Assembly: GCA_031316235.1 (NCBI GenBank)
Contig: JALDRA010000001.1
Coordinates: 2,160,001-2,192,000, forward strand
Reading direction: 5' to 3'
From: Candidatus Scalindua sp.
GTDB taxonomy: Bacteria > Planctomycetota > Brocadiia > Brocadiales > Scalinduaceae
Length of the DNA: 32,000 nucleotides
In this document: piece after piece, positions 4,403 through 29,348 of the stretch
Layout of the letters: each line of letters starts with the position of its first letter
Position numbering within the stretch: position 1 is the first letter of the stretch
Notes under the pieces: model-generated
What the model saw: only the letters and a program-made list of their open reading frames with translations
Told to the model about the DNA's origin: nothing
Databases searched by the model: none
Position numbers and translations under genes: made by a program

Positions 4403-4577
4403 TATACTAAAACCGATTTGATTTTAACTGTTTTCATGCTTTGCGTTCTTAGCGTCTTGGCGTGATATACTAAAACCAAAGCCTGGTTAATGGTATCCCC
4501 GGACAAAAAGCGCCGAAGACTTTACTCGCTCAATTTTATCTCGGATTGTATCCGAAAACCATTTCGAGATGAGTATA
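4403..4577 (+). repeat. family-1 repeat, rearranged copy D (duplicated left terminus, left hairpin lost)
   Basis: TATACTAAAACC occurs twice (4403 and 4466). From 4491 on it is collinear with the consensus (GGTATCCCCGGACAAAAAGCGCCGA...GAGATGAGTATA) and ends AGTATA at 4572-4577. Confidence 0.85.
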
Positions 4578-4631
4578 ATTGGGTGGGCAGTGAAACCCTA
4601 TGGTTGAAGGAAAACTGCCCAGGTACAAGGC

Positions 4632-4693
4632 GTGTAATAACTGCGGAACCGGAGCGTACTTTCAGTACGTGAGGGTTACAAAATTATTACAGC
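4632..4693 (-). repeat. family-2 ~66-bp repeat, copy 2a (inverted relative to 2b/2c)
   Basis: The reverse complement shares GTAATAATT and an exact 14-mer AGTACGCTCCGGTT with copy 2c at matching spacing. Central hairpin CGTACT-ttc-AGTACG. Confidence 0.6.
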
Positions 4694-4718
4694 AACGCCG
4701 TAGACGGGTAGTTTTCGT

Positions 4719-5291
4719 TCAACCACGTTCGATGATTTGAATAATTTCTCGCAGACTATCTATTTCGAAGTCGGGAATGACATCCATCTCAAGGTATTTC
4801 CTGTAGCGCAGCAGGGCTGTTTTTGCTCCTGCCGCTTTGCCGCACATGATATCGTATTTGTAATCTCCCACCATGAGCAGGTAGTCGGTATGGATATTCA
4901 TCATTTTACTCAATAAAAGGATGGCATCGGGGGCGGGTTTCGGCCGGGCATCGTCCCTGCTTATGACATGTTCAAAATGGATGTTGTGCTTGTTCATCAC
5001 AACATCAACCGATTTACGGCAGTTGCGGGTCAAGATCGCTGTTTTTAACTGCTTTTGTGACAGATAGTCCAGCAGTTCATGCACGCCTTCGTTGAGCTCA
5101 GACTCCATGGCGGCCTGTGTCTCAACCTGATCAAATATTTCCATCGCCTTTGCACGTGCTTCCGGGCTGGACCTTTCCGCGTGTTCAAGCACAAACCCGA
5201 TATTTTTCTCAATTTCCCGTTCAAGAGCGGCAAAATCGACTTTAGGCTTTGTGATAGTGCCATCCATATCAAATATAATCCCCTGCAGCAT
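4719..5291 (-). CDS. HAD-superfamily phosphatase/hydrolase
   Basis: HAD motifs are visible: FDMDGT (motif I), LTRN (motif II), GDYKYD (motif IV). I prefer the ATG at 5291 (AAGGA 8 nt upstream) over the TTG at 5333 used by the ORF track. Confidence 0.7.
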   Translation of the reverse strand: MLQGIIFDMDGTITKPKVDFAALEREIEKNIGFVLEHAERSSPEARAKAMEIFDQVETQAAMESELNEGVHELLDYLSQKQLKTAILTRNCRKSVDVVMNKHNIHFEHVISRDDARPKPAPDAILLLSKMMNIHTDYLLMVGDYKYDIMCGKAAGAKTALLRYRKYLEMDVIPDFEIDSLREIIQIIERG

Positions 5292-5480
5292 GAGTAAGTC
5301 CTTAACGATTGTTTCACCTATTGCGGGGTTCAAAAATTACTGTTCTCAATTTACAGAACCCGAATACATTTAAAATTACACTGTTTTCATTATAAAACCG
5401 AACTAGGTAAAATTTCAGATTTGTGTCTCCTCCCTCTGCCGGCCGGATCACCAGGCGGGGAGAGTCTGTTTTGCTCTTGA

Positions 5481-5505
5481 TAGTCTAAAACCGGTCTGGT
5501 GACGG
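5481..5505 (+). repeat. family-1 left-end fragment K
   Basis: TAGTCTAAAACCGGTCTGGT matches the consensus TATACTAAAACCGATCTGGT at 17/20 positions. Confidence 0.45.
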
Positions 5506-5623
5506 AAGAATACCTGAAATTGACTGATTTTGCAACCTCGTAATTTCTGTATAAACCGGTATCTCATAATAATATCAGTATGTCACGTCTCTCTTTTTCT
5601 GCGCCGTTTACCCTCTCAGGCTT

Positions 5624-5736
5624 TCTACTCATTTTACAATGGTTTCCGGATAAAATCCGAGATAAAATTGAGCGAGTATACCAGCAGCCAGGATCTGGTT
5701 TCCGGTAAAACCGAAAACCAGATCGGTTTTAGTATA
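5624..5736 (-). repeat. family-1 repeat, copy F (inverted, net 26-bp internal deletion)
   Basis: The reverse complement is collinear with the consensus from TATACTAAAACCGATCTGG to the right-hand hairpin. The central GTCCTCGGCGCTTTTTGTCCGGGGA segment is missing. Confidence 0.8.
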
Positions 5737-5797
5737 CCATACTCATTCGAGAAATCATCCTGGCATGGGTATATCTTTCATTTCTGTAACAAATTGC

Positions 5798-5827
5798 TTG
5801 ACACCAATACGAATGCTCTGTTACCAT
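5798..5827 (+). promoter_or_regulatory. candidate sigma70-type promoter for feoB (TTGACA-18-TACCAT)
   Basis: Perfect -35 hexamer at 5798-5803 and a 4/6 -10 match at 5822-5827. Position is sensible but unverified. Confidence 0.25.
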
Positions 5828-5838
5828 GAAACAGTTTT

Positions 5839-5859
5839 AATTGGTTCTCATTCTCAATT
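5839..5859. promoter_or_regulatory. candidate Fur-family-like operator, site 1 (AATTGGTTCTCATTCTCAATT)
   Basis: Lies just downstream of the candidate -10 and 143 nt upstream of the feoB ATG. TGAGAA-TGAGAA on the other strand resembles the GATAAT hexamer repeats of Fur boxes. The same core recurs at 12104-12124 and 12205-12225. Confidence 0.3.
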
Positions 5860-6001
5860 TCCAGGGGCTCCTCCAATCTCAGAATAAATCTCTGACAGTT
5901 ATGTTGCGATTTATGAACATGTGATTGTACCGGTCTGCACAACCGGCACCCGCTCCTCCGGCTTTTTCATCGAAGTACCGTATCAGTATGTGGATAAAAA
6001 A

Positions 6002-8275
6002 ATGGATCTATTAGAGAAAAAAACAAAGGAATCCTGTATAGCCCTTGTGGGTAATCCAAATGTGGGAAAGAGTGTAATATTCGGGTTGCTGACGGGGAAA
6101 TATGTGACTGTTTCAAACTATCCCGGAACAACCGTAGAAGTCTCCCGCGGAAAGTTCATGGAAGCAGGCGGGGCGGTGGAGGTTGTCGATACACCGGGCT
6201 CTAACAGTTTAATCGCTCATTCAGAGGATGAGCGGGTTGCAAGGGATATCCTGATCGAAGGTTCAGAGAAGAAGATCATACAGATAATGGATGCCAAAAA
6301 CCTGCAAAGAGGTCTTCTGATTACATCCCAGATAGCCGAGATGGGCCTGTCCTTAGCAATCGGCCTGAATATGTGGGATGAGACCCTGGATAGAGGGATG
6401 TCAATTGATGTTGCAAGGTTGCAGGAGATCCTGGGAGTACCGATAACAAAGACAATTGCTACACAAAAATACGGCATAAGCGCATTAAAAAATTCCGTAG
6501 ACTCGGCACAGGTACCGAAATTAACCATACATTACGGGGCCGTCATTGAAGACGGTATAAAGAGAATCGAAGAGCGGATACCTGAACATCATCTCATAAA
6601 GAAAAGGGCCATCGCCATAATGTTATTGTCTTATGACGAAACACTGGAAGAGACCCTGGGGTTCGATGCGGAGACACAAAATCACATTCATCATATCAGG
6701 GATGAGATTCAACAGAATTTTAACCTTCCGCTCAGTTACATAATAACCAAAAAACGCAGTGATTATGTTAAGAGTCTCCTGGAGGGCTTAATAACCTATG
6801 CGGTTAAAGATTCTGAAGGGAGAGGGTTTCTGAGAAATCTTTTTTTCTTCCTTGTGGCACCCCTTCTTACTTTCGCTATCGGTTTCAAGATTACTGATAT
6901 GATCTTATTCACCATATTAGGTAATGCCTCAGGAAACGGTCAATGGGAGCTGTATTTGAAAATTGCAGGAGGCGTCTTCTCTCTCGGTTTTTTCTCTTAT
7001 CATCTCTTTTCACGTGAGTACACCTCAAAACGGTCCACGTCAAATATCCTGGGCTCATTAATGATGCATCCGGTCCTGGCATGGCCGATACTCATTGTGG
7101 TGCTCTGGTGTATTTACAAGATGGTTGGCGAATTCGGTGCGGGAGATTGTGTTGATTTTATTGAGAATAAGATTTTTGGCTCATCAATGGAGAAGTCAGG
7201 GGGATTTGATTTTAAGTTTTTTATCCCTTTTACGGGGATAGAGTATGTCTTTACCCACGTCAACTTTCAGGGATTTAATTACTACCTGGGAACGTTGTTC
7301 CAGATGTTCATGAGTACCGACAATATATTCTTTCAGCTCTTTATGGGTAAAGAGGCCGGAGTGATACAGGTCGGACTGACCTATTCTATTGCAATTGTAC
7401 TGCCTATTGTCGGGTTCTTTTTCCTTGGTTTCGGCCTCATGGAGGATAGCGGATACCTGCCGAGACTGGCCGTAATGGTAAACAGGCTGTTTAAGGTAAT
7501 CGGCTTGAATGGTAAGGCTGTTTTACCGATGATTCTGGGTCTGGGGTGTGATACGATGGCGACTCTGACCACACGGATTCTGGACACAAAAAAAGAGAGG
7601 ATCATAACCACTCTCCTTCTTGCACTTGCAGTGCCGTGTTCTGCACAGCTGGGGGTTATCGCCGGTATACTCGGCAGCATATCCGGCGTCCATTTTGCGA
7701 TTTATGTCGTAGTAATTATTTCCCAGATGCTGCTGGTTGGTTTTCTTTCGTCAAAGATCCTCAAGGGAACACAATCGGACTTTCTCATGGAGATGCCGCC
7801 GATCCGGATGCCGAAGGTGACCAATATTTTATTGAAGACCTATTATCGGACAAAGTGGTTTCTCAAGGAAGCGGTACCGCTCTTCATTATCGGTACATTT
7901 GCCCTGTTTGTCCTGATAAAACTTGGTCTCTTGACCTATATCGAGAAGGCGGCCAGCCCTGTTGTAAAACATTTCCTGGGTTTGCCTGTTGAGACGGCAA
8001 GGGGTTTTATTCTCGGTTTTTTACGCAGGGATTATGCTGTTGTGAGTATTTTCAAGGCACTTGAAGATAAGGCCGGTGGCCTGGCAATTGATCCCAATCA
8101 GCTTATCGTAGCACTTGTTGTTATCACGCTCTTTGTGCCATGCCTGGCAAACTTCTTTGTCATGATCAAGGAACATGGTATCAAAACAGCATTTTTGATG
8201 CTGGGCTTTATCCTCCCTTTTGCATTTCTCGTTGGCGGTCTCCTGAGATACATCCTGCAGCTTCTCCCGATCTGA
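6002..8275 (+). CDS. feoB: ferrous iron transporter FeoB
   Basis: N-terminal G-domain motifs GNPNVGKS (G1), DTPG (G3), NMWD (G4), followed by a large polytopic membrane domain. Start moved to the ATG at 6002 (MDLLEKK...), 13 aa before IALVGNPNVGKS. The GTG at 5921 adds 27 non-FeoB-like residues. Confidence 0.9.
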   Translation: MDLLEKKTKESCIALVGNPNVGKSVIFGLLTGKYVTVSNYPGTTVEVSRGKFMEAGGAVEVVDTPGSNSLIAHSEDERVARDILIEGSEKKIIQIMDAKNLQRGLLITSQIAEMGLSLAIGLNMWDETLDRGMSIDVARLQEILGVPITKTIATQKYGISALKNSVDSAQVPKLTIHYGAVIEDGIKRIEERIPEHHLIKKRAIAIMLLSYDETLEETLGFDAETQNHIHHIRDEIQQNFNLPLSYIITKKRSDYVKSLLEGLITYAVKDSEGRGFLRNLFFFLVAPLLTFAIGFKITDMILFTILGNASGNGQWELYLKIAGGVFSLGFFSYHLFSREYTSKRSTSNILGSLMMHPVLAWPILIVVLWCIYKMVGEFGAGDCVDFIENKIFGSSMEKSGGFDFKFFIPFTGIEYVFTHVNFQGFNYYLGTLFQMFMSTDNIFFQLFMGKEAGVIQVGLTYSIAIVLPIVGFFFLGFGLMEDSGYLPRLAVMVNRLFKVIGLNGKAVLPMILGLGCDTMATLTTRILDTKKERIITTLLLALAVPCSAQLGVIAGILGSISGVHFAIYVVVIISQMLLVGFLSSKILKGTQSDFLMEMPPIRMPKVTNILLKTYYRTKWFLKEAVPLFIIGTFALFVLIKLGLLTYIEKAASPVVKHFLGLPVETARGFILGFLRRDYAVVSIFKALEDKAGGLAIDPNQLIVALVVITLFVPCLANFFVMIKEHGIKTAFLMLGFILPFAFLVGGLLRYILQLLPI

Positions 8276-8449
8276 TCAGATCTCTTCAGCGTTTCACGGA
8301 GCCAGAGTGCCTGCTCACTCACGCATCAGAGGAAATGGGCCTCACTTATTTTCAAATCATCAAAATACCCGTTGTTTCACGAGCCGCAACCTGCGGGTTT
8401 TCAGACTTTTCGGCTCTTGTCCGGGTCTCTGCCGCATTATCCGCTGAAG

Positions 8450-8478
8450 TATACGAAAACCAAACCGGTTTTCGTATA
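8450..8478. repeat. 29-bp perfect hairpin built from the family-1 terminal motif
   Basis: TATACGAAAACC (8450-8461), loop aaacc, GGTTTTCGTATA (8467-8478). 12-bp perfect stem. Confidence 0.6.
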
Positions 8479-8557
8479 TTCAGGAAATTTCGGACTGTTT
8501 TCTTCTGTTCCGCAATTGTGCAATGCCTGACAGCCTTCATCTTTCATCCGGAATTCA

Positions 8558-8767
8558 TCAGTTAATGAGCCGTATCTTTTCTCCCCATACATTTTGCTTT
8601 ATTGATATCAGGCCCTCATTTGCGAGCCAACCGATAGCCTGGTTGAAAAGGGCCCTCTTCATTCGTAACCGTCTCCTTAATTTCGGGAGAAACATCTCTC
8701 CGCTGTTTACATTTAATCGAATCCAGACTATGTCTGCAGCTACTTTAATCTGGTTTGTAATCTCCAT
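8558..8767 (-). CDS. small winged-helix-like protein (DUF2582-like by recollection)
   Basis: 69-aa ORF with a strong RBS (AAGGAG 5-6 nt upstream of the ATG at 8767), 24 nt downstream of the preceding gene. Pattern IW..L...GEM....L...L......L..AIGWLA.EG.I resembles small wHTH proteins. Confidence 0.5.
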   Translation of the reverse strand: MEITNQIKVAADIVWIRLNVNSGEMFLPKLRRRLRMKRALFNQAIGWLANEGLISIKQNVWGEKIRLIN

Positions 8768-8790
8768 AACATCTCCTTATAAAAAAGTAT

Positions 8791-10287
8791 TTATGACCAT
8801 TGCCTGGTCCCGGGTTTATCACATTCCACCATCTGATTTCCTTCATATCCATGATCTAAGCGTATACAGTTCATGTAGCTGTTAATCATGTCAACTGATT
8901 TCGGTGAATCATGTTCCCTCTGTTTGAGGAGAGAAAGCTCATGCATTGATCTCTCGAAGCCATTGGGGAAGTAAGAGATAAAGGCTGCGTAGTGTATTTC
9001 TGAAAAAAGATCTTTATTCTCCAGCCCGGCTGCCTTTTCAACACAGTTAAAACCCTCCTGCAGTAACATCTGCCCCCGCCAGCCATAGGTTATTGTGCCA
9101 ACTGCTGCGAGCACATTCGGTGAGTCCGGATGGTGCGTCTCAAGGGTTTCAAAGAAATCGACTGCCCGAAGAGTTTCCCGGTATTGCCACGCAAGCTGTA
9201 CATATCGGGCAAACATGGTACTGAATATTTCATCAGTATGTTTTCTTTCCAGGTAACCTTCAAGGATAGAGAGATGGGTATCGAGCTCTCTATCCTTTGC
9301 CGTGGAGACCTTACCGGCAAAAGCAGTATTATGAATTATGGGATAGGGGAAACGGGCAATCTCCTCACACCTTCTCTCACTCTCCTGTCCCGGTGGCCCG
9401 GTATGCAGGGGGCCAGAATTATTATCCCTTTTATCCTGTAACAGTTGAAGTTTTTTATCAATGTTTCCAGCCATGGCATAATGACCGTGCTCGCGGTAAA
9501 TCCTCGAAAGATTCTTATAGATATCATCTAAATGTGAGCGGTTATGTTTCTCTTTTTCTATAAGTAAATAGAACTGCTCTATGGCTTCCGGAAATCTTTC
9601 CGGCAGATACGCAAGATACGCTGCACGGCACAGGCGGGGGAAAAAGGCCTCTGTGTCCATTGAAACGGCTTCATCAATTTTTTTCAGGCCGTCTCTGAGA
9701 GTTTTCTCCGCATCCCAGCCACAGCTGATTACCCCCTTTGCCGTCAGGGTATAAGGTGATGACTGGTTTGTTTCATATTGGAGATCGTGGAAAAAATCTA
9801 TAGCCCGTTTCTCTTGCTCAAGATGCTTGCAGGCTGTTATATATTGTGAAAAGAGTCTGGGAAACACTCTCTTGTCAATATTCAGTTTCATACTGTTTTC
9901 AAGACGGCATAAGTCGTTTCCTGATACACTAAAACCGATTTGGTTTTCGGTTTTACCGCCCCCGCCAGAATGAGTATCGCCCGCCCGGCCTGTCAGCCAT
10001 TCGGACTGGGGCTGGCGAACGGCTGACAGGCCGGAAACCAGATCCTGGTTAATGGTATCAACAGACATACGCCGAGGACCATACTCGCTCAATTTTATCC
10101 GAAATCCAGTATGAGATGAGTATAACAGTGTGTCGACAGGAAAGCTTTCATCTGAGACTGAAGAAATTGTATCAGGTTCCTGCCCGGTCACTCCTTCTGC
10201 CGATTTGTCTGCAACAAAGAGTGCAGACATGACGAAAAGAGATAAAAGAAAAAATACGGTAACGGTAAATGGCTTTAAAAAAAACAT
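8791..10287 (-). CDS. secreted hypothetical protein with an internally duplicated ~140-aa helical module; carries a family-1 repeat in frame
   Basis: 498-aa uninterrupted ORF. GGAG RBS 8 nt upstream of the ATG at 10287. N-terminal signal peptide (MFFLKPFTVTVFFLLSLFVMSALFVA). Two paralogous modules (RAIDFFHDL...GW...AAYLAYLP and RAVDFFETL...GW...AAFISYFP). Confidence 0.6.
   Translation of the reverse strand: MFFLKPFTVTVFFLLSLFVMSALFVADKSAEGVTGQEPDTISSVSDESFPVDTLLYSSHTGFRIKLSEYGPRRMSVDTINQDLVSGLSAVRQPQSEWLTGRAGDTHSGGGGKTENQIGFSVSGNDLCRLENSMKLNIDKRVFPRLFSQYITACKHLEQEKRAIDFFHDLQYETNQSSPYTLTAKGVISCGWDAEKTLRDGLKKIDEAVSMDTEAFFPRLCRAAYLAYLPERFPEAIEQFYLLIEKEKHNRSHLDDIYKNLSRIYREHGHYAMAGNIDKKLQLLQDKRDNNSGPLHTGPPGQESERRCEEIARFPYPIIHNTAFAGKVSTAKDRELDTHLSILEGYLERKHTDEIFSTMFARYVQLAWQYRETLRAVDFFETLETHHPDSPNVLAAVGTITYGWRGQMLLQEGFNCVEKAAGLENKDLFSEIHYAAFISYFPNGFERSMHELSLLKQREHDSPKSVDMINSYMNCIRLDHGYEGNQMVECDKPGTRQWS
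9925..10124 (+). repeat. family-1 repeat, copy E (72-bp nested insertion, right hairpin half-deleted), embedded in a CDS
   Basis: TACACTAAAACCGATTTGGTTTTCGGTTTTACCG, then the insert, then CCGGAAACCAGATCCTGG...CCAGTATGAGATGAGTATA. It lies wholly inside ORF 8791-10287. Confidence 0.85.
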
Positions 10288-10354
10288 GCTTCACTCCTCT
10301 TTTAAAAATTCTCAACAGAATAGATAGTGTTTGAAAGAAAACTATCCATGTACT

Positions 10355-10420
10355 GTGTTACGGTAATAATTCCGCAATCCTCCGGGAGACGAGCATGCAC
10401 CGGTTACGGAATTACTGACA
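10355..10420 (+). repeat. family-2 ~66-bp repeat, copy 2b
   Basis: 46/66 identical to copy 2c by hand alignment, with exact blocks CGGTAATAATTCC and CCGGTTACGGAATTA at identical spacing. Confidence 0.65.
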
Positions 10421-12287: not shown

Positions 12288-12343
12288 TATGCTCATCTTA
12301 TAATGGTTTCGGATAAATCTAAAACCGAATCGGTTTTTGTATA
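12288..12343 (-). repeat. family-1 miniature copy G (56 bp, termini joined, core deleted)
   Basis: TATGCTCATCTTATAATGGTTTCGGATAAATC joined to TAAAACCGAATCGGTTTTTGTATA. Both halves align to the two ends of the reverse-complemented consensus. Confidence 0.6.
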
Positions 12344-12515: not shown

Positions 12516-14165
12516 TTGGCGGAGATTGGAAGCGGCAGAATAAGGTTTGGTATTTTTTCTCATCTCAAACAGGATATTCCGGCAAGTATTGTCGTGCTGT
12601 TTGTCGCATTGCCGCTTTGTCTCGGTATCGCACTGGCAAGCGGAGCGCCTCTTTTTTCGGGGCTTATCGCGGGAATAGTCGGAGGGATAGTTGTAGGGTC
12701 TATAAGCGACTCAGCACATGGGGTCAGCGGACCGGCTGCTGGCCTGGCGGTAATTGTTTTAGATGCCCTGGCCAAAATCGGATCTTTTGAAATATTCTTA
12801 CTTGCGGTTGTAATCGGGGGGGGGATACAGATAATACTTGGCCTGGTTAAAGCGGGTATTATCGGATATTTTTTCCCCTCTGCGGCAATAAAGGGGATGC
12901 TCTCCGGCATCGGCATTATTATCATCCTGAAACAGATACCTCATGCCCTTGGATTAGACAAAGAGTGGATGGGGAATGACTCTTTTATCCTGGAGGGAGG
13001 TGGCAATACGTTTAAATTGCTGTGGCAGCTTTTTGAACAGTTAACACCCGGGGCGGTATTAATTGCCATTATTTCAATGGGAATCTTACTGTTGTGGGAA
13101 TTGTATCTGACGAAGAAATATAATTTCTTTACCTTCATTCAGGGACCGATAGTCGTGGTAGCAGCAGCTGTCTGCTGCCAGTTTATAACAAAAAGTTACT
13201 TTCCTCAATATACCTTAGGTTCGGAACACCTGGTAAGTGTGCCGGTGGCAGGGAGCATGTCATCATTCATTTCCCTGTTTACCTTTCCTGATTTCAGTCA
13301 ACTGGGCAATAAGGAGGTCTATTTTTTAGCTTTGACCATTGCGATTGTAGCCAGTTTGGAAACACTCCTGAGTGTGGAGGCTACTGACAAACTGGATCCC
13401 CACAAGAGGGTTACCTCAACCAACCGGGAGCTATTTGCTCAAGGTACCGGAAATATTATATCCGGATTGATTGGTGGATTGCCGATTACGCAGGTAGTCG
13501 TTCGAAGTTCCGCCAATATCCAATCCGGTTCAAAAACGAAACTCTCAACTATCATTCATGGGCTTATGCTGTTGGTGTGTGTTGCTTTGCTTCCGGCTGT
13601 CCTGAATCTTATCCCCTTATCCGCTCTTGCATGCATCCTGTTAGTAGTAGGGTATAAGTTGTCTAAACCGGTTCTATTTGCACAGATGTATAAACTGGGA
13701 TGGGACCAGTTTATACCGTTTATGGTTACGGTTCTCGGGATTGTATTTGTGAATTTGCTGGTCGGGCTCGGGCTTGGATGTTGTGTCGGCGCTGTCGTGA
13801 TCCTGATCCGTAGCTATCAAAATTCTCACTTCCTGCATCTTGAGACATACAACGGAAGAAAACAGTTAAAAATGACTCTGGCTGAAGATGTTACCTTTCT
13901 GAACAAAGGTGCGATCATAAAAGAGTTGGCCAGAATAGCCAAAGGAACACACCTGACCATTGATCTCACGAAATGTTATAGTATTGATTACGATGTGAAG
14001 GAGATTATAGAAGATTTCATCACTTCAGCACCGGATAGGGACATTATTGTCAATCTGAAGCGCAAATCGGACATTGCCGGGAGCAGAGAAAAGATTTTCT
14101 CCGAAAAACTTGATAGATGGGTATTGGCCCTTCCCGCAAAAAATAACCTGCTGCCGGCTACATAA
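12516..14165 (+). CDS. SulP-family inorganic anion transporter (sulfate/bicarbonate permease type) with C-terminal STAS-like domain
   Basis: 549-aa polytopic ORF. TTG start with AGGAG 7 nt upstream. SulP-like segments are visible (PLCLGIALASGAP, GLIAGIVGGIVVG, NRELFAQGTGNIISGLIGGLPIT). Soluble C-terminal ~100 aa. Confidence 0.85.
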   Translation: MAEIGSGRIRFGIFSHLKQDIPASIVVLFVALPLCLGIALASGAPLFSGLIAGIVGGIVVGSISDSAHGVSGPAAGLAVIVLDALAKIGSFEIFLLAVVIGGGIQIILGLVKAGIIGYFFPSAAIKGMLSGIGIIIILKQIPHALGLDKEWMGNDSFILEGGGNTFKLLWQLFEQLTPGAVLIAIISMGILLLWELYLTKKYNFFTFIQGPIVVVAAAVCCQFITKSYFPQYTLGSEHLVSVPVAGSMSSFISLFTFPDFSQLGNKEVYFLALTIAIVASLETLLSVEATDKLDPHKRVTSTNRELFAQGTGNIISGLIGGLPITQVVVRSSANIQSGSKTKLSTIIHGLMLLVCVALLPAVLNLIPLSALACILLVVGYKLSKPVLFAQMYKLGWDQFIPFMVTVLGIVFVNLLVGLGLGCCVGAVVILIRSYQNSHFLHLETYNGRKQLKMTLAEDVTFLNKGAIIKELARIAKGTHLTIDLTKCYSIDYDVKEIIEDFITSAPDRDIIVNLKRKSDIAGSREKIFSEKLDRWVLALPAKNNLLPAT

Positions 14166-14273
14166 GGGCGGCATTTCTGGATCAGGTGCACTTTCAATGG
14201 TTAAAGTCTATATTGCTTGCTATATAAGGGGTTACAGCAATTATTCTTCCGTTATTCACCCGTTTTTTGCACG

Positions 14274-14412
14274 TATACTAAAACCGATCTGGTTTTCGGT
14301 TTTTCTGGAAACCAAATCCTGGTGAAGGTATCCCCGGACAAAAAGCGTCGAGGACTTTACGCGCTCAATTTTATCTCGGATTGTATCCGAAATCCAGTAT
14401 TAGATGAGTATA
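14274..14412 (+). repeat. family-1 repeat, full-length copy A (139 bp)
   Basis: TATACT...AGTATA. 8 differences from copy C over 139 nt by hand alignment. Confidence 0.9.
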
Positions 14413-14520
14413 TTAAAATAATTCAGTAACAATTTCTGATAACGATACAAGGTAAACCTTGAACGATCAAGGGGCACAACGTAAAGGGTCTTTAAACATT
14501 TGTGAGAATGCTGATGAGAT

Positions 14521-14601
14521 AGCCTTACTGCCGAAGAGTATTTCCATGGATTCTTATTGAATTCATTCAATATTTTTCAGCAGTAAGGCTTTTTTGTTTT
14601 T
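14521..14601 (+). terminator. strong intrinsic-terminator-like hairpin plus T-tract
   Basis: AGCCTTACTGCCGAA (14521-14535) pairs with TTCAGCAGTAAGGCT (14576-14590) at 14/15 positions. An inner stem ATTGAAT/ATTCAAT is present, followed by TTTTTGTTTTT (14591-14601). Confidence 0.55.
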
Positions 14602-14738: not shown

Positions 14739-17177
14739 ATGAATAGTATTAACGAATACAATAAAAATTTAAGATTTCTCTGGGTGTTGTTTTTTATCTT
14801 CCTCCTTGGAATTACGACTGCTTTTGCATTTGAATCTGATAAAGAATTATTCACTGAAGCACTCCAATCATCTGATACTTACGCTACCCGGGAGAAAGCG
14901 GAGCAAGACCCAACTATTGTCAGGAGCAGATATGTAAATGTTAATTTTACATTACTTGCTGAGGAAAAAGATGTTGCATCCAAATCTCAAGGGGATGATT
15001 CTTTAATCGTCTTGAACCTGTTTGATGAAGTCGCGGTAACAGCTATTAATGAACGTGTGGAAAGAAGATCTTCGAGTAGTTACACATGGATCGGGTGGAT
15101 TCCGGAAAGGGAAGTTGGTCAGGCGGTCCTGGCGGTAGAGGGTGGTCATATGGCCGGGAATATTACTATCGGGGGGAAAATGTATCAGGTTAGGAGTATA
15201 GGCAATGGTGTACACGCCATATACGAAATAGATCAGGGGGCCTTCTCTGATGAACACCCTCCGATTCCCGTAGAAGGGCTGGATGATTCCCATGAGGCTG
15301 ATCAAAGTTCACAGGAAGATTCTGCATCCACCATTGATATTATGGTGGTGTATACGGATGATGCAAGAGCTGCCGCTGGTGGGACATCCTCCATAAATGC
15401 GCAGATCCACCTCGCCATCAGCGAAACGAACCAATCCTATGCCAACAGTGGTATATTCCAGAGAGTGAGACTTGTCCATGCACAAGAGGTGTTTTACGCA
15501 GAAACAGGCGATATGTATACGGATTTAGACCGTATCACATCAGCGGGTGACAGCTGGTTGGATCAAATACATACATGGAGGAATACCTATTGTGCCGATA
15601 TGGTGAGTTTCTGGGTTGAAAATGGGGGAAGCTATTGCGGGCTTGCCTGGCTTATGGTTGATGTTTCAAACAACTTTGAATCTGCTGCCTTCAGTGTGGT
15701 AGATCGAGGCTGTGCAACCGGGAACTTTGTCTTTGGCCACGAACTAGGACACAATATGGGGGCCCATCATGACCGTGCCAATGCCAATGGGTATGGAGCA
15801 TACTCCTATTCATTCGGATATCAAGACCCTGGTAGAAATTGGAGGACGATCATGGCATACAATTGTCCCGGTGGTTGTATCAGGGTAAATAACTGGTCGA
15901 ACCCGGACGTTTTGAGAAATGGCATCCCAATGGGTGTACCTTCCGGACAATCTGATTCCGCAGACAACCGCAAAGCGCTCAACAACACAGCATTTACTGT
16001 TGCCAATTTCAGACAAGCGTGTGGCGGTGGCAGTACCCCTGAGATAACGAGTCCGGTGCCTGGTTCGATATTAAATTGTGGTGATCTGTTTTTTAACTGG
16101 TCAGCAAATGGCACCGCAGTAAGTGAGTGGCAGCTATATGTTGGAACCATGCAGGGTGGAAGAGATATTCTTGACAGTGGCAATTTGGGCAGCATTACAT
16201 CTCTCACCGTAAGTGGAATACCAGAAGATGGGAGCACGGTTCATGTGCGGCTTCGTTATAACTCAGGAGGTACGTGGCGGTTTGTTGATTATCAGTACAC
16301 GGCAGCCAGTAACTGCGGCGGTACACCTTCAATGACATCCCCCGCATCAGGTTCGACCTTGAATTGTACATCGCATCAGTTTTCCTGGACCAACCCTAAT
16401 GGTTCCACAGCATTCTGGGTGTATGCGGGGAGCAGTAGAGGTGCATACGATTATTACAACAGCCGCAATATTGGAACGGCAACGAGTCATGCGGTCACCG
16501 GACTGCCGTCGGATGGCAGCACAGTGTACGTCAGGCTGTATTATTACAAGAACGGCTGGAAAAAAGAGGATTACACCTATAAGGCGTGTACTGGCGGAGG
16601 CGGAGGAACGGCACCTTCAGTGACATCCCCCGCATCAGGTTCGACTTTGAATTGTACATCGCATCAGTTTTCCTGGACCAACCCTGATGGTTCCACAGCA
16701 TTCTGGGTGTATGCAGGGAGCAGTAGAGGTGCATACGATCATTACAACAGCCGTAATATTGGAACAGTAACGAGTCATACGGTCACCGGACTGCCGTCGG
16801 ATGGCAGCACAGTGTACGTCAGGCTGTATTATTACAAGAACGGCTGGAAAAAAGAGGATTACATCTATAAGGCTTGTACCGACGGAGGCGGAGGAACGAC
16901 ACCTTCAGTGACATCCCCCGCATCAGGTTCGACCTTGAATTGTACATCGCATCAGTTTTCCTGGACCAACCCTGATGGTTCCACAGCATTCTGGATGTAT
17001 GCGGGGAGCAGTAGAGGTGCATACGATTATTACAACAGCCGTAATATTGGAACAGTAACGAGTCATACGGTCACCGGACTGCCATCGGATGGCAGCATAG
17101 TGTACATCAGGCTGTATTCCTACAAGAACGGCTGGAAAAAAGAGGATTATACCTATAAGGCGTGTACTGGCGGATGA
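14739..17177 (+). CDS. secreted metzincin (reprolysin/M12B-like) zinc metalloprotease with four C-terminal ~96-aa Cys-bracketed domains
   Basis: Signal peptide (LWVLFFIFLLGITTAFA). Zinc motif HELGHNMGAHHD (15738-15773, HExxHxxGxxH) and a downstream Met-turn candidate (RTIMAY). Four repeats of the SP.SGS.LNC...W.YAG...G..D...S...G....V.GLP.DGS.VY.RL...K..W...DY.Y.AC type follow. Confidence 0.8.
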   Translation: MNSINEYNKNLRFLWVLFFIFLLGITTAFAFESDKELFTEALQSSDTYATREKAEQDPTIVRSRYVNVNFTLLAEEKDVASKSQGDDSLIVLNLFDEVAVTAINERVERRSSSSYTWIGWIPEREVGQAVLAVEGGHMAGNITIGGKMYQVRSIGNGVHAIYEIDQGAFSDEHPPIPVEGLDDSHEADQSSQEDSASTIDIMVVYTDDARAAAGGTSSINAQIHLAISETNQSYANSGIFQRVRLVHAQEVFYAETGDMYTDLDRITSAGDSWLDQIHTWRNTYCADMVSFWVENGGSYCGLAWLMVDVSNNFESAAFSVVDRGCATGNFVFGHELGHNMGAHHDRANANGYGAYSYSFGYQDPGRNWRTIMAYNCPGGCIRVNNWSNPDVLRNGIPMGVPSGQSDSADNRKALNNTAFTVANFRQACGGGSTPEITSPVPGSILNCGDLFFNWSANGTAVSEWQLYVGTMQGGRDILDSGNLGSITSLTVSGIPEDGSTVHVRLRYNSGGTWRFVDYQYTAASNCGGTPSMTSPASGSTLNCTSHQFSWTNPNGSTAFWVYAGSSRGAYDYYNSRNIGTATSHAVTGLPSDGSTVYVRLYYYKNGWKKEDYTYKACTGGGGGTAPSVTSPASGSTLNCTSHQFSWTNPDGSTAFWVYAGSSRGAYDHYNSRNIGTVTSHTVTGLPSDGSTVYVRLYYYKNGWKKEDYIYKACTDGGGGTTPSVTSPASGSTLNCTSHQFSWTNPDGSTAFWMYAGSSRGAYDYYNSRNIGTVTSHTVTGLPSDGSIVYIRLYSYKNGWKKEDYTYKACTGG
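16323..17177 (+). repeat. three near-identical 288-bp tandem coding repeats
   Basis: ACATCCCCCGCATCAGGTTCGAC recurs at 16335, 16623 and 16911, a period of exactly 288 nt. The units differ by 7-8 aa per 96 aa. Confidence 0.9.
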
Positions 17178-17264
17178 AAAGAATTTCAGTATGCCCCATC
17201 GCACAGTGAGACCGACAGCTTGATCTTTCATTTCAGTGGATGTTTACACCCCTCCCCTTCATCA

Positions 17265-18514: not shown

Positions 18515-18533
18515 CCAGATCGGTTTTCGTATA
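18515..18533 (-). repeat. family-1 left-end fragment I
   Basis: CCAGATCGGTTTTCGTATA matches the corresponding part of copy F (CCAGATCGGTTTTAGTATA) at 18/19 positions. Confidence 0.5.
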
Positions 18534-20317: not shown

Positions 20318-20509
20318 TTAGCTCTTTACCAGCTTCCGCTCATCATCATAAATATGGGTTGTAGGAAGAGAGTTAACGTTAAAGTGGAATCCCAGATCTT
20401 CTTCGCCAAAAAAAATGGGATATCTGTTTCCCTTCACCGGGATAAAACTTTTTGCCCTGGTTTTATCAAAATCTAGGGAAACACCGAGAATTGATACATC
20501 ATCCGGTCT
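20318..20509 (-). pseudogene. C-terminal half of a TlpA/ResA-like thioredoxin-fold protein (N-terminal CxxC half missing)
   Basis: DVSILGVSLDFDKTRAKSFIPVKGNRYPIFFGEEDLGFHFNVNSLPTTHIYDDERKLVKS* fits the C-terminal pattern of redoxin-family proteins (V.vlgvs.D......F.......yP.......l...y.v...PttflID..GkiV). The apparent N-terminus of the ORF (MSGDTFTMIWFPVRPKTKSVLVY) is translated family-1 repeat. Confidence 0.55.
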
Positions 20510-20510
20510 G

Positions 20511-20649
20511 TATACTAAAACCGATTTGGTTTTCGGTCTTACCGGAAACCAAATCATGGTGAAGGTATCCCCGGACAAAAAGTGCCGAGGACTTTACTCG
20601 CTCAATTTTATCTCGGATTTTATCCGAAATCCAGTATGAGATGAGTATA
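20511..20649 (+). repeat. family-1 repeat, full-length copy B (139 bp)
   Basis: 6 differences from copy C over 139 nt. Positions 74-139 are identical to copy C. Confidence 0.9.
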
Positions 20650-20889
20650 TTTCGCTTGTATGGCAGAGTAGACAGGAACCTGTTGTTTACAGGGGTTACA
20701 AAAAGTGGCTCAGAAGTCAACAATAAGAACCTTACTCGCTCAAATCGAAGACTGATCATGAAAAAACAACTGAGGGTAGGGGGGGCGTTATACGGGGAGA
20801 GGTGTATAACGCCTTGTGGTTTGCCGTCTTACAATGCAAAACAGGCCTCTTTAGTCCCTTTCCTCAGTTATGTTTTTTCAATACGTAAA

Positions 20890-22527: not shown

Positions 22528-22600
22528 TACCTGGTTTTCCGGTGAAAAACCGTTTTCAAAATATCCGCTGAGTGGATTATGATCTGGTTTTCTGTTTGAC
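22528..22600. repeat. degenerate family-1 debris J (two opposed fragments)
   Basis: CCTGGTTTTCCGGTGAAAAACCG resembles the minus orientation of the left stem region. GATCTGGTTTTCTGTTTGAC (22581-22600) matches the plus-orientation GATCTGGTTTTCGGTTTTAC at 17/20 positions. Confidence 0.35.
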
Positions 22601-22662
22601 TGGATGAGACAAGTCATTATACTCGTACTGGTCTGTGACCGGGCGGAAACTTTTCACCTATG

Positions 22663-22728
22663 GTGCTGCGGTAATAATTCCATACTCCTGAGATACAAGA
22701 GTACGCTCCGGTTACGGAATTAACACGC
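22663..22728 (+). repeat. family-2 ~66-bp repeat, copy 2c
   Basis: See copy 2b. It also shares an exact 14-mer with the reverse complement of 2a. Confidence 0.65.
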
Positions 22729-23730: not shown

Positions 23731-23816
23731 ATCAGCAACTCAAAGGAGCTGATTTATGGCAGTTTGCCGCTGAACATGAAGCTGATAAAGAATTTTGAAT
23801 ATTTTTAGGCATAAGT

Positions 23817-24149
23817 ATGATATTACTGATCTTGTCCATAGTATCCCTGGTATTGACGGCTGTATGCTATTTTTTCTCCAGACCGTTTATCTGTACTCTA
23901 TTTGTCTCCATTTTTATCGTTTCGAACACGGTCCTGGCGTATGCCCTTCTCTATGATCAGCATGCCGTTATCTTTTTTTTTCTCATAACGGTATGTGTTA
24001 TATTTCCCGTTTCGTGTCTGGTCTCGTTTCTGTTTGATATTATGTACGGAATATTCTGTATTGATACCTCCTTTTCCCTGTTGATTGCGTGGGTTTTTTT
24101 GCCCTTATTACTTCCCATAAACCTGGTTCTTTTTTGCCTTGAAAACTAA
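23817..24149 (+). CDS. small hydrophobic protein, doubtful
   Basis: 110-aa very hydrophobic ORF overlapping the lpxB start by 11 nt. No recognisable motifs. Confidence 0.3.
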   Translation: MILLILSIVSLVLTAVCYFFSRPFICTLFVSIFIVSNTVLAYALLYDQHAVIFFFLITVCVIFPVSCLVSFLFDIMYGIFCIDTSFSLLIAWVFLPLLLPINLVLFCLEN

Positions 24150-25302: not shown

Positions 25303-25415
25303 TAATTTCGAGTAAGTGGATCCTGCACAACTCGTTCAAAAGGGCACGAAACAACTACTTTTTTGCAGCTGTTTCACCCCTTTTGTGTATGAGGTTCCGC
25401 AATGGTCTTTCAATA

Positions 25416-27407
25416 CTACAGCCCTTCAGATTTTAACCTTTTATATATGGAGAATTCTCTTTCAGACTCTTTTACTTTCCACTTTGCCCGATAAATTATG
25501 CCCAGGGCAAAGTGGGCTTCTGCGTTATCAGGATCTATCCCAATTGCCGATCTCAACCTGAAAATCGCATCTTCCATGTTACCCTTCTTTGCGTAAGCAA
25601 TCCCGAGATTATAATTTGCATCACCATAATCAGCTTTCATTTCTATGGCATGTTTATATTCGTAAATTGCTTCATCGATCTGATTTTTAAAATCATAGGC
25701 AACGCCAAGGTTATTATAGGCTTTCGCATAAATAGGATTTAACTTTACCGCCTGTTTCCATTCGATAATGGCCCTGTCCAGGTCTCCCAGATGGCGATAG
25801 ATCAACCCTAAATTGTAATGTGCCTTGGCATGCGAAGGGTTAAGCTTTATCGCTCGATTTAATTCTGCAATGGCTTCTTCAGGCAGGTCTTTTTCAATAT
25901 AAATTGAGCCGAGATGATAGTGTGCTTCCGGATAATCTTCTTTTATCTTTATTGCCTTTTTCAGGGTACTAACGGCTTTATCCACCAGCCCCATGCTGTA
26001 ATAGGCAAATCCTAAATTATTATACGCCTTATAATGTTTCGGGTTTACTTCTAATGTTTTTTTCCATTCTGCAACCGCTTCCTCCATTAAACCTTTATCG
26101 CTGTAGGCATTTCCCAGGAGAAAATGGAGCAGGTCGTTGTCTGGTTTAAATTCAATCCCCTTTTTTAACATGTTTATGGCATCTTCGTAGAGCTCCTTTT
26201 TCAGATATGCAAAACTTAAGTTATAGTATGCCTCAGCATAATCCGGGGTGATCTCAATAGCCCTGTTGTACGCAGAAATAGCTTCATCCGGCAACCCTTT
26301 TTTATAATACACCACACCCATGTTAATGAATGCCTTCGCAAAAGAGGGATCTCTTTTTAAGGTTTCATTAAACTCTCTTAAAGAGTCGTTGAGCATGCTC
26401 TTTCTCAGATAAATTACACCCAGATTATAGTGGGCCCTTACATGATCGGGCTCTAATTCCAGCACCGCCTGAAATGCCGAAATCGCATCATTGAACATCC
26501 CCTGCTTGAAATAGGTAATTCCCCGGTTATAATGAACCTTTGGATCTGCCGGGTCAATTTCTGCAATATTCTCATATGTTATAATCGCATCCTCAAATTT
26601 TCCCATTTCATGAAATGTTATTGCCAGATTGTTCAGAATCCTCGTATCTTTCGGATCGATGGCAGACGCCTTGATCAATATTGATAACGCTTCATCCAGC
26701 ATCTCTTTCTTTCTATATGCCAGCCCCAGGTTGTAAAATGCATCGATAAAACCTGGTGCCAGTTCAATAGCTTTTTTCAGGTTTGAAATCGCACTTTCTA
26801 ACTGATCCTTCTCAAGATATACAGTGCCGAGATTATAGTATGATTCAGCATAATCGGCATTTACCGCTATCGCCTTTTCATACATTGATATTGCCTCATC
26901 GATTACTCCATTGGCACAATAAATATTCCCCAGGTTGTTTAAAGCCTGATAGTAATCAGGCTTTATTTCGACTGCCCGTTTAAATGCGGTAATCGCATCA
27001 TCTATCAACTCTTTTTTGTGATAGATAAAACCGAGATTATACTCTGCCATTGCATTGGCGGGATCAAGCTGCGTAATCTGTTTAAAGATATCGATTGCTT
27101 TTTCAAGCTCACCTTGCTGAAAAAAGATAGTACCCAGATAAGAATAGGCATTAACATAATTCTGATCTAATTCGATAATTTTGTTAAACTCGTCTATCGC
27201 CTCAGGTATCATTCCTTTATCATAAAACGCTAGTCCGAGAAAATAACGAACTTCAACATTTGATGGCTCTATTTCCAGGGCCTTCTGCAGTTCGTTAATA
27301 GAGTTCATCAGATCGGTTTTAACGTCTTCTTCTCCATGGACATACATGCCATGATGAAAAATCAGAACTGCAATGATAAGAAATGAAAAGTATTTGACTC
27401 GAGACAT
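25416..27407 (-). CDS. secreted tetratricopeptide-repeat protein (~18 consecutive TPRs)
   Basis: 663 aa. GGAGG RBS, signal peptide, then uninterrupted 34-aa periodicity (A..YNLG..Y...g..deAI..y..Ai.l.P..a.a). Confidence 0.9.
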   Translation of the reverse strand: MSRVKYFSFLIIAVLIFHHGMYVHGEEDVKTDLMNSINELQKALEIEPSNVEVRYFLGLAFYDKGMIPEAIDEFNKIIELDQNYVNAYSYLGTIFFQQGELEKAIDIFKQITQLDPANAMAEYNLGFIYHKKELIDDAITAFKRAVEIKPDYYQALNNLGNIYCANGVIDEAISMYEKAIAVNADYAESYYNLGTVYLEKDQLESAISNLKKAIELAPGFIDAFYNLGLAYRKKEMLDEALSILIKASAIDPKDTRILNNLAITFHEMGKFEDAIITYENIAEIDPADPKVHYNRGITYFKQGMFNDAISAFQAVLELEPDHVRAHYNLGVIYLRKSMLNDSLREFNETLKRDPSFAKAFINMGVVYYKKGLPDEAISAYNRAIEITPDYAEAYYNLSFAYLKKELYEDAINMLKKGIEFKPDNDLLHFLLGNAYSDKGLMEEAVAEWKKTLEVNPKHYKAYNNLGFAYYSMGLVDKAVSTLKKAIKIKEDYPEAHYHLGSIYIEKDLPEEAIAELNRAIKLNPSHAKAHYNLGLIYRHLGDLDRAIIEWKQAVKLNPIYAKAYNNLGVAYDFKNQIDEAIYEYKHAIEMKADYGDANYNLGIAYAKKGNMEDAIFRLRSAIGIDPDNAEAHFALGIIYRAKWKVKESEREFSIYKRLKSEGL

Positions 27408-27543
27408 AGCTTCCTCCTATCCTGTTATGTGTGGCTGGTTGTTTTATGGGAGATTGAAATATTTTACTGGTTACCCCGACCTGGTCAGGACGGGCTCTAA
27501 AATGGAAACCTGCGGTTTTCAAACTTTCCCATATCGTTAGTGT

Positions 27544-27562
27544 ATAAAAGAGCGAGGCGCTC
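27544..27562 (-). terminator. weak terminator-like hairpin after the 284-aa gene
   Basis: The minus strand reads GAGCG-cct-CGCTC followed by TTTTAT. Only a 5-bp stem. Confidence 0.3.
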
Positions 27563-27580
27563 ATCCAGGTCTTGTATCCG

Positions 27581-28435
27581 CTAAGGTAAGAGTAATGTTT
27601 CCATAACCTGTATTTCCGGTTCTTCGTCGATACCTTCTTCCAGAGTAACTGGTTGAACCTCACTTACTGAGACCTCTGCTTCTTTTTCCTGCTGACTGAA
27701 GACCGCACGCAATAGACTCATAGAGGCAATCTCTTCTGATGGATAGTGCAAAGGCGATGACACCTTATTTCCCGAAGACTGTTTATTCATGGCAGCGAAG
27801 CTGTCTTCAATAGATGCCATAATCATCCTTGTCCTACCCGGCGTGAACCCTTCAATTTCAGCAAATTTCACTTCATAGTTCAACGTTTCCTGTGGAATAC
27901 TGAAAGCGTGAAACCTCTCTTTGAGCATAAAAACATGATCAAGCTCTTCCAATGGCAAAAATGAGGGGTCCCCCATCAAATCTTTCTCAGGCTTTTCAAA
28001 TGGAGATTCAATAGTAAACTTTTCTGTTTTTGTCTGGGTAAATTCTCCGGGAATGATGTTTTCGAGTTTCTTGGCCAATAGTGCATCAGGCCTCTCTTTT
28101 TTTATACCCACTATTCTCTGCACCAGGAAATCACCTATAAGATATTCCTTAAAAGTATATTCTGGATGCCTTTTCTTCTGCATGCTGAAGTTTGCAAACA
28201 GAAACATGATGGCTATCAGCAATGATAATATGGTAACAATCATGGATGAAGAGTGAGGTATTACCTTCTTCAGGATATGGAGAAATATAACAAATAAAAG
28301 TGATGCGCAACCGACCTCAAAAAGACCTGCCTGCGATTTTCCTGTGAAGGTTATGTAGACAAATGCAGCTGCAATGAAAAAAAAAGCGATACAGATATAA
28401 ACAGTAGCCTTTTTAAAATTTTTCTTTATCGTCAT
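27581..28435 (-). CDS. membrane-anchored hypothetical protein
   Basis: 284-aa ORF with three N-terminal TM segments and an acidic soluble C-terminal part. No recognised motifs. Confidence 0.5.
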   Translation of the reverse strand: MTIKKNFKKATVYICIAFFFIAAAFVYITFTGKSQAGLFEVGCASLLFVIFLHILKKVIPHSSSMIVTILSLLIAIMFLFANFSMQKKRHPEYTFKEYLIGDFLVQRIVGIKKERPDALLAKKLENIIPGEFTQTKTEKFTIESPFEKPEKDLMGDPSFLPLEELDHVFMLKERFHAFSIPQETLNYEVKFAEIEGFTPGRTRMIMASIEDSFAAMNKQSSGNKVSSPLHYPSEEIASMSLLRAVFSQQEKEAEVSVSEVQPVTLEEGIDEEPEIQVMETLLLP

Positions 28436-28726
28436 GGAATGATTTGCCGTTCATTACTCAGGACGCAGGCTGCGCCTGAGGTTTCAGATCAAGAGAAGCT
28501 GACCGTGATAACAGACCAAGCCGTTTTTTCCTGAGTCCTCATGCATCAAGAGAAAGGCACTATAAAAGAGACGCTGAAAGATTTGCAAAAAATTTGTAAG
28601 CAGTAATGTTTGTAAGGGTTAATAATAGCGGAAAAAAAGATTTTTTCAAGCGAATTTACTTTTGCTTCACCCTGAACAGTGATAGAATTCTCTTTTGAGC
28701 AATAAAGTTCCGGTTAAGGGCCCAGG

Positions 28727-29194
28727 TTATTCGTTTCTTTTAAAAATATTCCAATCATGTTTCAGATCAAAATTGCCATCAAATTTAAACTTAATATCGA
28801 ATTCCTCTTTAAAATCATAAACATCCTTAAAGTCTTCCCGTGTATCTGTTTCGGTTTTACCCATTAAACCGCTTTCTACGAGATTAAAAACTATTTCCCC
28901 AAAATCCGCGCTTTTGGTAATACCCCATTGCTCTAAAACTTTCCTTGTCATATAACCGAACCTTTCTAATGCACACTGTTTGATTCCTTCTGAAAGTTCC
29001 TGCCCGGTGACATGACGTTCCTCCTCTTTCGAACTGTTATACTTCTTTCCGAGACTTGATGCAGTATAATCAAGTGCTTCAAAAATAAACTGGTACGCTT
29101 GTATTGAATACCGCTTATCCTTTTTTATGACATCCTGAAGTTTTTTCCATGTATCAAAAACTGTTTTTTTTCCCACATTTTTCTCTCTAAACAA
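28727..29194 (-). CDS. conserved hypothetical protein, Minf_1886-like (family recalled as Planctomycetes/Verrucomicrobia-enriched)
   Basis: 155 aa. RYSIQAYQFIFEALDYT...HVTGQELSEGIKQCALERFGYMT...WGI.KSADFGEIVFNLVESGLMGKTETDTREDF matches my memory of this family. The start is uncertain (TTG at 29194 or GTG at 29176). Confidence 0.6.
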   Translation of the reverse strand: MFREKNVGKKTVFDTWKKLQDVIKKDKRYSIQAYQFIFEALDYTASSLGKKYNSSKEEERHVTGQELSEGIKQCALERFGYMTRKVLEQWGITKSADFGEIVFNLVESGLMGKTETDTREDFKDVYDFKEEFDIKFKFDGNFDLKHDWNIFKRNE

Positions 29195-29209
29195 TCATAT
29201 CAACAAGGC

Positions 29210-29348
29210 TATACTAAAACAGATCTGGTTTTCGGTTTTACCGGAAACCAGATCCTGGTGAAGGTATCCCCGGACAAAAAGCGCCGAGGACTTTACTCGC
29301 TCAATTTTATCTCGGATTTTATCCGAAATCCAGTATGAGATGAGTATA
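29210..29348 (+). repeat. family-1 repeat, full-length copy C (139 bp)
   Basis: TATACTAAAACAGATCTGG...GAGATGAGTATA. The last base is immediately adjacent to the metG stop codon (29349-29351). Confidence 0.9.

Follow-up and report, generated by a model that had tools for sequence, protein, structure and literature searches.

The window analysed here is a stretch of 32,000 nt from a Candidatus Scalindua sp. (contig JALDRA010000001.1), in which a short repeat, referred to as family 1, recurs between ordinary housekeeping genes, among others those for a PhoD-like phosphatase, a Na/H exchanger, FeoB, a SulP transporter, MetRS, LpxB and response regulators. We propose that family 1 is very probably a modular, two-hairpin miniature inverted-repeat transposable element (MITE) of the Scalinduaceae (anammox Planctomycetota) that targets TA and is mobilised in trans by a DDE transposase of the IS630 family. 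A preliminary description, made from the letters of the window, had reported a structured repeat of about 139 bp at ten or more loci that matched no recognised family, and had considered a MITE, an element of the IS200/IS605 type and a structured RNA as explanations. Copies A, B, C, D, E and F were recovered by sequence reading and a repeat finder, and the family is represented in the window as follows, with strands as given.

Copy A, 14274-14412, plus strand: full 139-bp copy (135-bp element plus a flanking TA at either end), followed 28 nt downstream by a cyclic di-GMP-I (c-di-GMP-I) riboswitch.
Copy B, 20511-20649, plus strand: full 139-bp copy, antisense to its flanking genes, a tandem arrangement on the minus strand.
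Copy C, 29210-29348, plus strand: full 139-bp copy inside an apparent operon, with the metG stop codon (29349-29351) on one side and the next open reading frame (ORF; start at 29194) on the other.
Copy D, 4403-4577, plus strand: composite of a left-end fragment with unrelated sequence (4403-4464) and a copy that has lost its left hairpin by deletion between AAACC direct repeats (4465-4577).
Copy E, 9925-10124, plus strand: copy of the 139-bp type with a GC-rich hairpin module (9959-10030) nested in the left-hairpin loop and a 12-nt deletion in the right domain.
Copy F, 5624-5736, minus strand: 113-nt short form in a divergent intergenic region.
Miniature, 12288-12343, minus strand: 56 nt, the left terminal inverted repeat (TIR) joined directly to the right end.
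Palindrome, 8450-8478, no strand assigned: 29 nt, two left-end TIR halves, TATACGAAAACC..GGTTTTCGTATA.
Solo left-end relic, 18515-18533, minus strand: 18/19 match to the left TIR.
Degenerate left-end relic, 5481-5499, plus strand: 16/19 match to the left TIR.

The window copies are all intergenic, and element sequence makes up about 3% of the 32 kb, at roughly one locus per 3-4 kb. An nhmmer profile built from 103 copies found all six large copies A-F end to end (E 1e-27 to 1e-45; 1e-27 to 1e-34 for D, E and F), which confirms the three that had been described as rearranged as significant members of the family, and it also found the 12288-12343 miniature and the 8450-8478 palindrome. A 33-nt core pattern gave four window matches vs 0 expected. 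With a 19-nt left-end pattern and at most three mismatches there were ten matches vs 0 in shuffles, including the relics at 5481-5499 and 18515-18533, and the claim of at least ten loci is thereby upheld. Most of the smaller fragments reported earlier are thus genuine; the one at 22528-22600 remains doubtful, its match to the profile not being significant (E about 1.2). The three exact 139-bp copies on the plus strand stand as described, and the counts given for them were exact: B and C differ at six positions, A and C at eight, and positions 74-139 are identical in B and C.

The family is not confined to the window. A scan for a 21-nt internal pattern, with each species represented by one genome, found it, among the matches listed, in more than 116 blocks of 8 kb from at least five Scalinduaceae genomes, almost all of them metagenome-assembled genomes (MAGs) of Candidatus Scalindua or the Scalinduaceae (RBC_AMX3, SCAELEC01, CBDCUS and OFTM1), plus one Planctomycetota MAG. 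A match labelled 'Eubacteriales' (locus L025) was rejected as a family copy, being a partial match of 26 nt only. In about 0.93 Mb of loci, drawn from five genomes or more, together with the window, the profile gave about 198 hits, 140 of them end to end; 9 of the 140 end-to-end copies overlap crude ORFs and nearly all are intergenic. The viral scan returned no viral contig carrying the pattern. The common right-end 26-mer was found at three loci only in the JGI metagenome collection, and the window-specific right end had zero matches in the metagenome scan. Over genes at 1590-3900 the window is 93-94% identical to SCAELEC01, which places it in another, though related, lineage of Scalindua.

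Boundary analysis on 103 unique end-to-end copies revealed sharp ends between unrelated flanks. TATACTAA...TGAGTATA is near-invariant (right end GAGTATA), as is TATACT..AGTATA at the termini. The TIRs, which had been put at 6 bp, are longer, with imperfect repeats of about 26 bp in which 17-18 of 26 positions agree between the left end and the reverse complement of the right end and which have in common an outer TATACT (TACT without the duplicated TA) and an inner TGGTTTTCGG. Two independent hairpin domains are predicted on either strand (fold z-scores of -4 to -8.5 vs shuffles), each of them a TIR-like palindrome. The right domain alone exists as a 57-nt mini-element with the same TATA ends (locus L040, 6676-6733; locus L007, 1639-1695), and miniatures that run from left end directly to right end occur at locus L002 (2557-2613) as well as at 12288-12343 in the window. 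The commonest size class measures 112-113 nt (37 copies) and includes F, which is therefore no rearranged oddity, contrary to how it first appeared. Another 30 copies, A, B and C among them, measure about 139 nt; the remaining classes are 132 nt (8 copies), 146 nt (4), about 165-177 nt (20) and about 200-220 nt (4). What sets the longer classes apart is the presence of discrete GC-rich hairpins, 26-33 nt in length, inserted into the hairpin loops of the element itself. The 72-bp insert already recognised in E is a nested composite of such modules, which are seen in many other copies. Size variants arise by internal deletion (113 nt) and by nested insertion of GC-rich hairpins (146 to about 220 nt). 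End-to-end copies span 113-220 nt and are non-coding and dispersed, within the size of small MITEs (<300 bp).

Filled and empty sites are informative about how these ends came to lie where they do. At paralogous sites of SCAELEC01, inside a second repeat family, the empty site reads GCGCCTTG-TA-CCTGGG and the filled site GCGCCTTG-TA-[TACTAAAA...GATGAGTG]-TA-CCTGGG (element TACT..GAGTG). An orthologous intergenic locus compared across three species is empty in CBDCUS (CTCTGA-TA-TC) and filled in SCAELEC01 and RBC_AMX3 (CTCTGA-TA-[element]-TA-TC), which is the presence/absence polymorphism that the preliminary description had proposed to look for. Since a single TA in the empty sites corresponds to TA on both sides of the filled ones, the comparison indicates that the outer TA is a target-site duplication and that the element proper measures 135 bp. 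TA..TA bounds all 103 copies, and the pooled flanks display a symmetric A-T/G-A preference beside the TA, within an AT-rich palindromic context (ATA-TA-TAT). Such a context is known for Tc1/mariner and IS630 elements. Two other orthologous pairs, L028/L077 and L049/L052, were dropped as empty-site tests because their flanks are too diverged.

A candidate partner came from a search for IS630/Tc1 catalytic-signature motifs over six-frame translations of all loci. A 343-aa ORF at locus L042 (CBDCUS; 4759-5790) contains DNARYYRS...LPVYSPNLNLIERLW, matches NCBIfam NF033545 ("IS630 family transposase", 210 bits vs a cutoff of 100) and carries Pfam DDE_3 and HTH domains. It lies in an insertion sequence (IS) of 1122 bp (L042 4690-5811) that starts with TATACCGGTCACGAAAAAG and ends with CCTAAAACCATTTCGTAATGAGTATA. 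Ten further copies of this IS, in metagenomes and MAGs and with different flanks, all start with TATAC and end with GAGTATA, save one with a degenerate right end. Different flanks with constant ends fit an active IS that duplicates TA. Compared with the right inverted repeat (IRR) of the IS, the MITE right end matches at 21-23 of 26 positions (binomial P about 1e-7 to 1e-9) and the MITE left end at 19 of 26, while the left inverted repeat (IRL) of the IS matches its own IRR at 14-18 of 26. An autonomous element of the sort that had been suggested as a target for searching thus exists in the clade, the two MITE ends matching its IRR at 19-23 of 26 positions. A 140-nt MITE copy at 1939-2078 of the same locus means that both IS and MITE coexist in one genome, CBDCUS. 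The transposase cluster is multi-copy in a Planctomycetes MAG, is represented by truncated copies in Scalindua sp. AMX11 and is also found in CBDCUS and other MAGs; P0035, an IS630 transposase of Scalindua, is encoded on a contig of 4.1 Mb.

Other candidate partners fell away. A second IS630-like IS (locus L103, about 3540-4670, in RBC_AMX3, with a 346-aa ORF) has unrelated TIRs, TATTAACYCGGCAAATAAATA. Left and right ends lying 0.35-4 kb apart, sought in 116 loci as possible borders of an autonomous copy, turned out in every case to belong to two separate MITEs, and orphan left ends at loci L083 and L090 adjoin ordinary genes (TPR and radical SAM). ORF clustering in the loci yielded no multi-copy ORF. 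No Y1 or TnpB gene was tied to the element ends in about 0.93 Mb of loci, and the IS-like ORFs detected there were of the IS630 type only. Separately, a sister TIR type, TATACCCATCACGAATTGGTTTT(C/A)GG, is present at L053 588-613, L066 6093-6118, L090 5655-5680, L002 2677-2702 and L111 291-316, and is closer to the ends of IS630-family ISs than family 1 is. This suggests that further MITE families are mobilised by the same IS group.

Because the ends are sharp, TIRs are present, TA behaves as described at filled vs empty sites and an IS with matching ends is at hand, the option of a non-autonomous MITE is the one that prevails. In the mechanism that we envisage, the DDE transposase of the IS630-family IS, or of a close relative, would be supplied in trans and bind both TIRs; the element would then be excised by cut-and-paste and reinserted at a TA in AT-rich palindromic context, with duplication of the TA. 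Judging from these comparisons, mobilisation in trans probably occurs and the family may currently be active in the window's own genome. Several observations speak against this scenario. There is no transposase among the genes of the 32-kb window, as the preliminary description had correctly stated. The MITE left end matches the IRL of the IS at only 13-15 of 26 positions, and MITE and IS resemble each other only over about the terminal 26 bp. Since the MITE interior is unrelated to the IS, the MITE did not arise from the sampled IS copies by deletion alone. A TA that is duplicated cannot be separated by sequence alone from a TA that the element itself carries. Finally, the orthologous copies in SCAELEC01 and RBC_AMX3 are about 97% identical vs 81-84% (nucleotide) for the flanking genes. 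They differ only in a clustered 8-nt patch that separates two subtypes, and this clustering argues for conversion or replacement rather than simple decay. The identity of the orthologous copies needs gene conversion, re-insertion or selection besides simple decay.

The relationships among copies bear on the age of the family. Pairwise identity among A, B and C is 94-96%, and copies in other genomes show a mean column identity of 96%. The window copies A, B, C and E carry shared variants that about 100 copies in other genomes do not show: three window copies vs 0/71 elsewhere have ATCCAGTATGAG, a paired GATCTGG / CCAGATC change is window-specific, and in the window lineage CTGG was acquired by both TIRs as well as by the internal mirror of the left one. 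Such window-specific variants imply amplification from a lineage-specific master copy and point to lineage-specific amplification of a diagnostic subfamily, which possibly co-evolved with a variant transposase. These data also bear on the possibility that family 1 is a fossil, a MITE family that is immobile in the window's genome and whose likeness to IS ends reflects ancient ancestry only, as in Correia elements. The missing transposase in the window would be expected of a fossil, as would the degraded or rearranged copies and relics (D, E, 5481 and 18515) and the fact that at least one insertion, the one at the orthologous locus, is older than the split between SCAELEC01 and RBC_AMX3. However, the near-identity of A, B and C with their lineage-specific changes and the homogeneity of the copies in other genomes speak against it, and intact IS copies with full-length ORFs at several sites imply recent IS activity in the clade. 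We therefore consider a fossil family to be improbable.

If family 1 were a palindrome-associated transposable element (PATE) of the IS200/IS605 type, a Y1 HUH TnpA acting on subterminal hairpins would move it as single-stranded DNA and insert it 3' of a short specific target without duplication. Two strong hairpin domains near the ends are in keeping with this, and from the sequence the left TA could be the target and the right TA the element's own. Yet TIRs are present: the hairpins are palindromes derived from TIRs of about 26 bp that match a DDE IS of the IS630 family, and the mini copies are simple TIR-TIR palindromes. The sole conserved flank is TA, in a symmetric AT-rich context instead of an asymmetric left-side target of 4-5 nt, and it is single in empty sites and present on both sides of filled ones, i.e. 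duplicated. Nor is any Y1/TnpB gene tied to the ends in the loci surveyed, the related autonomous element being a DDE IS. A PATE, offered earlier as an option, is thus hardly credible. The preliminary description had also regarded a structured RNA (a small RNA, attenuator, terminator or other cis-regulatory RNA), with copies kept for their RNA function rather than inserted, as equally compatible. Some features do favour it: both strands fold better than shuffles, the GATCTGG / CCAGATC change in the window lineage compensates a stem, some copies lie within operons or adjoin a riboswitch, and copies stay highly similar between species. Of the cells scored for the 113-nt class, 94.9% are paired, and a few double-sided changes rise above shuffles; with double changes in only 5/1226 cells, there is too little variation to inform covariation. 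The palindromic structure is explained by the TIR-derived architecture, and it is often altered by deletion and insertion variants. No match to the element was found in Rfam at gathering score or E<=10 (nothing credible at E<=10 for copy A), the sole gathering-level match in the window being the c-di-GMP-I riboswitch, and simple scans around copies A and C detected no promoter or terminator intrinsic to the element above shuffles. The 111 copies with classifiable gene context comprise 70 in tandem (30 sense, 40 antisense), 30 divergent and 11 convergent spacers, vs a background of 440, 88 and 78, and the 140 end-to-end copies are split between 71 on the plus and 69 on the minus strand. These counts speak for a modest excess in divergent, AT-rich spacers only, and against any orientation constraint. 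Presence/absence polymorphism with TA duplication and insertion into other repeats also speak against an RNA. On balance, a structured RNA is very unlikely, and an IS630-type MITE accounts for the same hairpins.

The MITE copies leave a trace in gene prediction. The element had been described as open in at least two reading frames; only frame -2 is without a stop codon, frames +1 and +2 having one stop each, but the accompanying suspicion that it generates spurious ORFs is correct. The ORFs 8791-10287 (minus strand), 14074-14325 (plus), 20318-20578 (minus) and 20499-20759 (minus) are created or extended by read-through of MITE copies and are likely annotation artefacts. The c-di-GMP-I riboswitch aptamer beside copy A (RF01051) occupies 14441-14535 on the plus strand (43.2 bits vs a gathering score of 35), 28 nt downstream of the copy, and lies upstream of an 812-aa reprolysin-like metalloprotease ORF (14739-17177). 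This ORF contains three tandem 288-nt repeats (16324-17187) that are 92-95% identical and encode three 96-aa repeats.

Family 1 shares its intergenic space with two other kinds of repeat. The second repeat family, MITE-like and about 155 nt long with TIR TAGTGTTTGAACGAAAAC and TA at both ends, is present at many Scalindua loci (e.g. L116, about 6610-6765) and hosts nested family-1 insertions. It lies in the window at these positions.

Second MITE-like family, 4593-4726, minus strand.
Second MITE-like family, 10316-10414, plus strand.
Second MITE-like family, 22647-22722, plus strand.

A composite of this second family and a nested family-1 copy has spread to five sites in SCAELEC01, all five with a GAGTGTA variant. 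The third kind ('family 3') consists of GC-rich hairpins of 26-33 nt, CCYGYCYG...CRGRCRGG, located in the window at 9959-10030 (inside E) and 4196-4223 and elsewhere at many loci (e.g. L020 6604-6633, L033 4765-4797 and L046 7006-7031). Inside MITE loops four or more independent positions or types can be told apart, of which three lie directly after TTTTA, and there is no net duplication. Another 17 are free-standing, often at the tips of longer palindromes, with a REP-like look. It is conceivable, though unlikely, that the MITE hairpin loops are preferred landing pads for REP-like GC-rich hairpins and that some MITE copies have in addition been co-opted as structural modules of RNA or DNA. 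If so, a DDE MITE would itself be host to an insertion process that targets single strands or hairpins, one parasite living on another, and candidates for co-option would include the copy kept at about 97% in two species and the copies in operons or beside a riboswitch. The nesting of three repeat families offers a natural system for how small mobile DNAs target one another.

In kind, family 1 resembles elements described from other bacteria. The closest in mechanism is RUP of S. pneumoniae, a 107-bp element with a TA target and TIRs like those of IS630-Spn1, whose transposase has been proposed to mobilise it in trans (PMC2229807). RUP and the Scalindua element are both intergenic, non-coding, about 107-140 bp long and of high copy number, with IS630-like TIRs and TA duplication, and RUP likewise inserts into other mobile repeats. 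The TIR similarity of the Scalindua element, however, extends over 26 bp vs the 9 contiguous bp quoted for RUP, and RUP differs from it in having neither the two-domain hairpins, nor the minis made of the right domain only, nor the nested GC-rich hairpin modules. The host phylum is also different (Planctomycetota), and the likeness lies in kind and mechanism. The closest in form are the Correia/NEMIS elements of Neisseria, with TA duplication, TATA termini, TIRs of about 24-26 bp and sizes of 107 and 155 bp (PMC2229807; PMC10969869). There, too, an internal segment makes two size classes, 107/155 bp as compared to 113/139 bp in Scalindua, and in both systems copies are densely spread between genes and co-transcription with neighbours is likely. 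Unlike Correia elements, which have no known autonomous partner, the Scalindua element has a matching IS630-family IS. A further difference lies in IHF sites, promoters and RNase III processing, none of which is known from the Scalindua element; simple scans of it gave no promoter or terminator. Nezha has been cited as an active cyanobacterial MITE (PMC10969869). Nezha and other bacterial MITEs have in common with the Scalindua element cut-and-paste transposition, TIRs and high identity within a genome. Nezha reportedly has a TA target and derives from an IS630-family IS; it belongs to a different sequence family and host, and the sampled IS is not the source of the Scalindua interior. IS200/IS605 PATEs and REP/RAYT systems are without TIRs or target duplications and depend on Y1 HUH transposases. 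Like family 1 they are small, hairpin-rich intergenic repeats, and the likeness to REP is confined to the GC-rich hairpins of family 3. ERIC/IRU, at about 127 bp, is likewise an imperfect palindrome, and inserts at fixed internal sites produce its longer variants (partly Table 1, PMC2229807). Unlike ERIC, which has 7-bp TIRs and no identified transposase, the Scalindua element carries its inserts as discrete GC-rich hairpins in hairpin loops.

The earlier impression that the repeat matched no recognised family holds at the level of sequence, as the literature searched contained no description of Scalindua or anammox MITEs, but not at the level of kind, where it is an ordinary IS630-type MITE. 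Planctomycetes are absent from a 2024 review of prokaryotic MITEs (PMC10969869). The family is new and probably the first described for anammox bacteria. Elements of this kind are well known, and the current understanding of transposition is left unchanged; what is now documented for anammox Planctomycetota is a dense MITE family together with its probable IS630 partner. Assemblies of Scalindua MAGs are fragmented by such repeats, which also give rise to spurious ORFs, while individual copies serve as strain-level insertion markers. They may also rewire the expression of neighbouring genes, for example at the riboswitch-adjacent copy A or at copy C in the metG operon.

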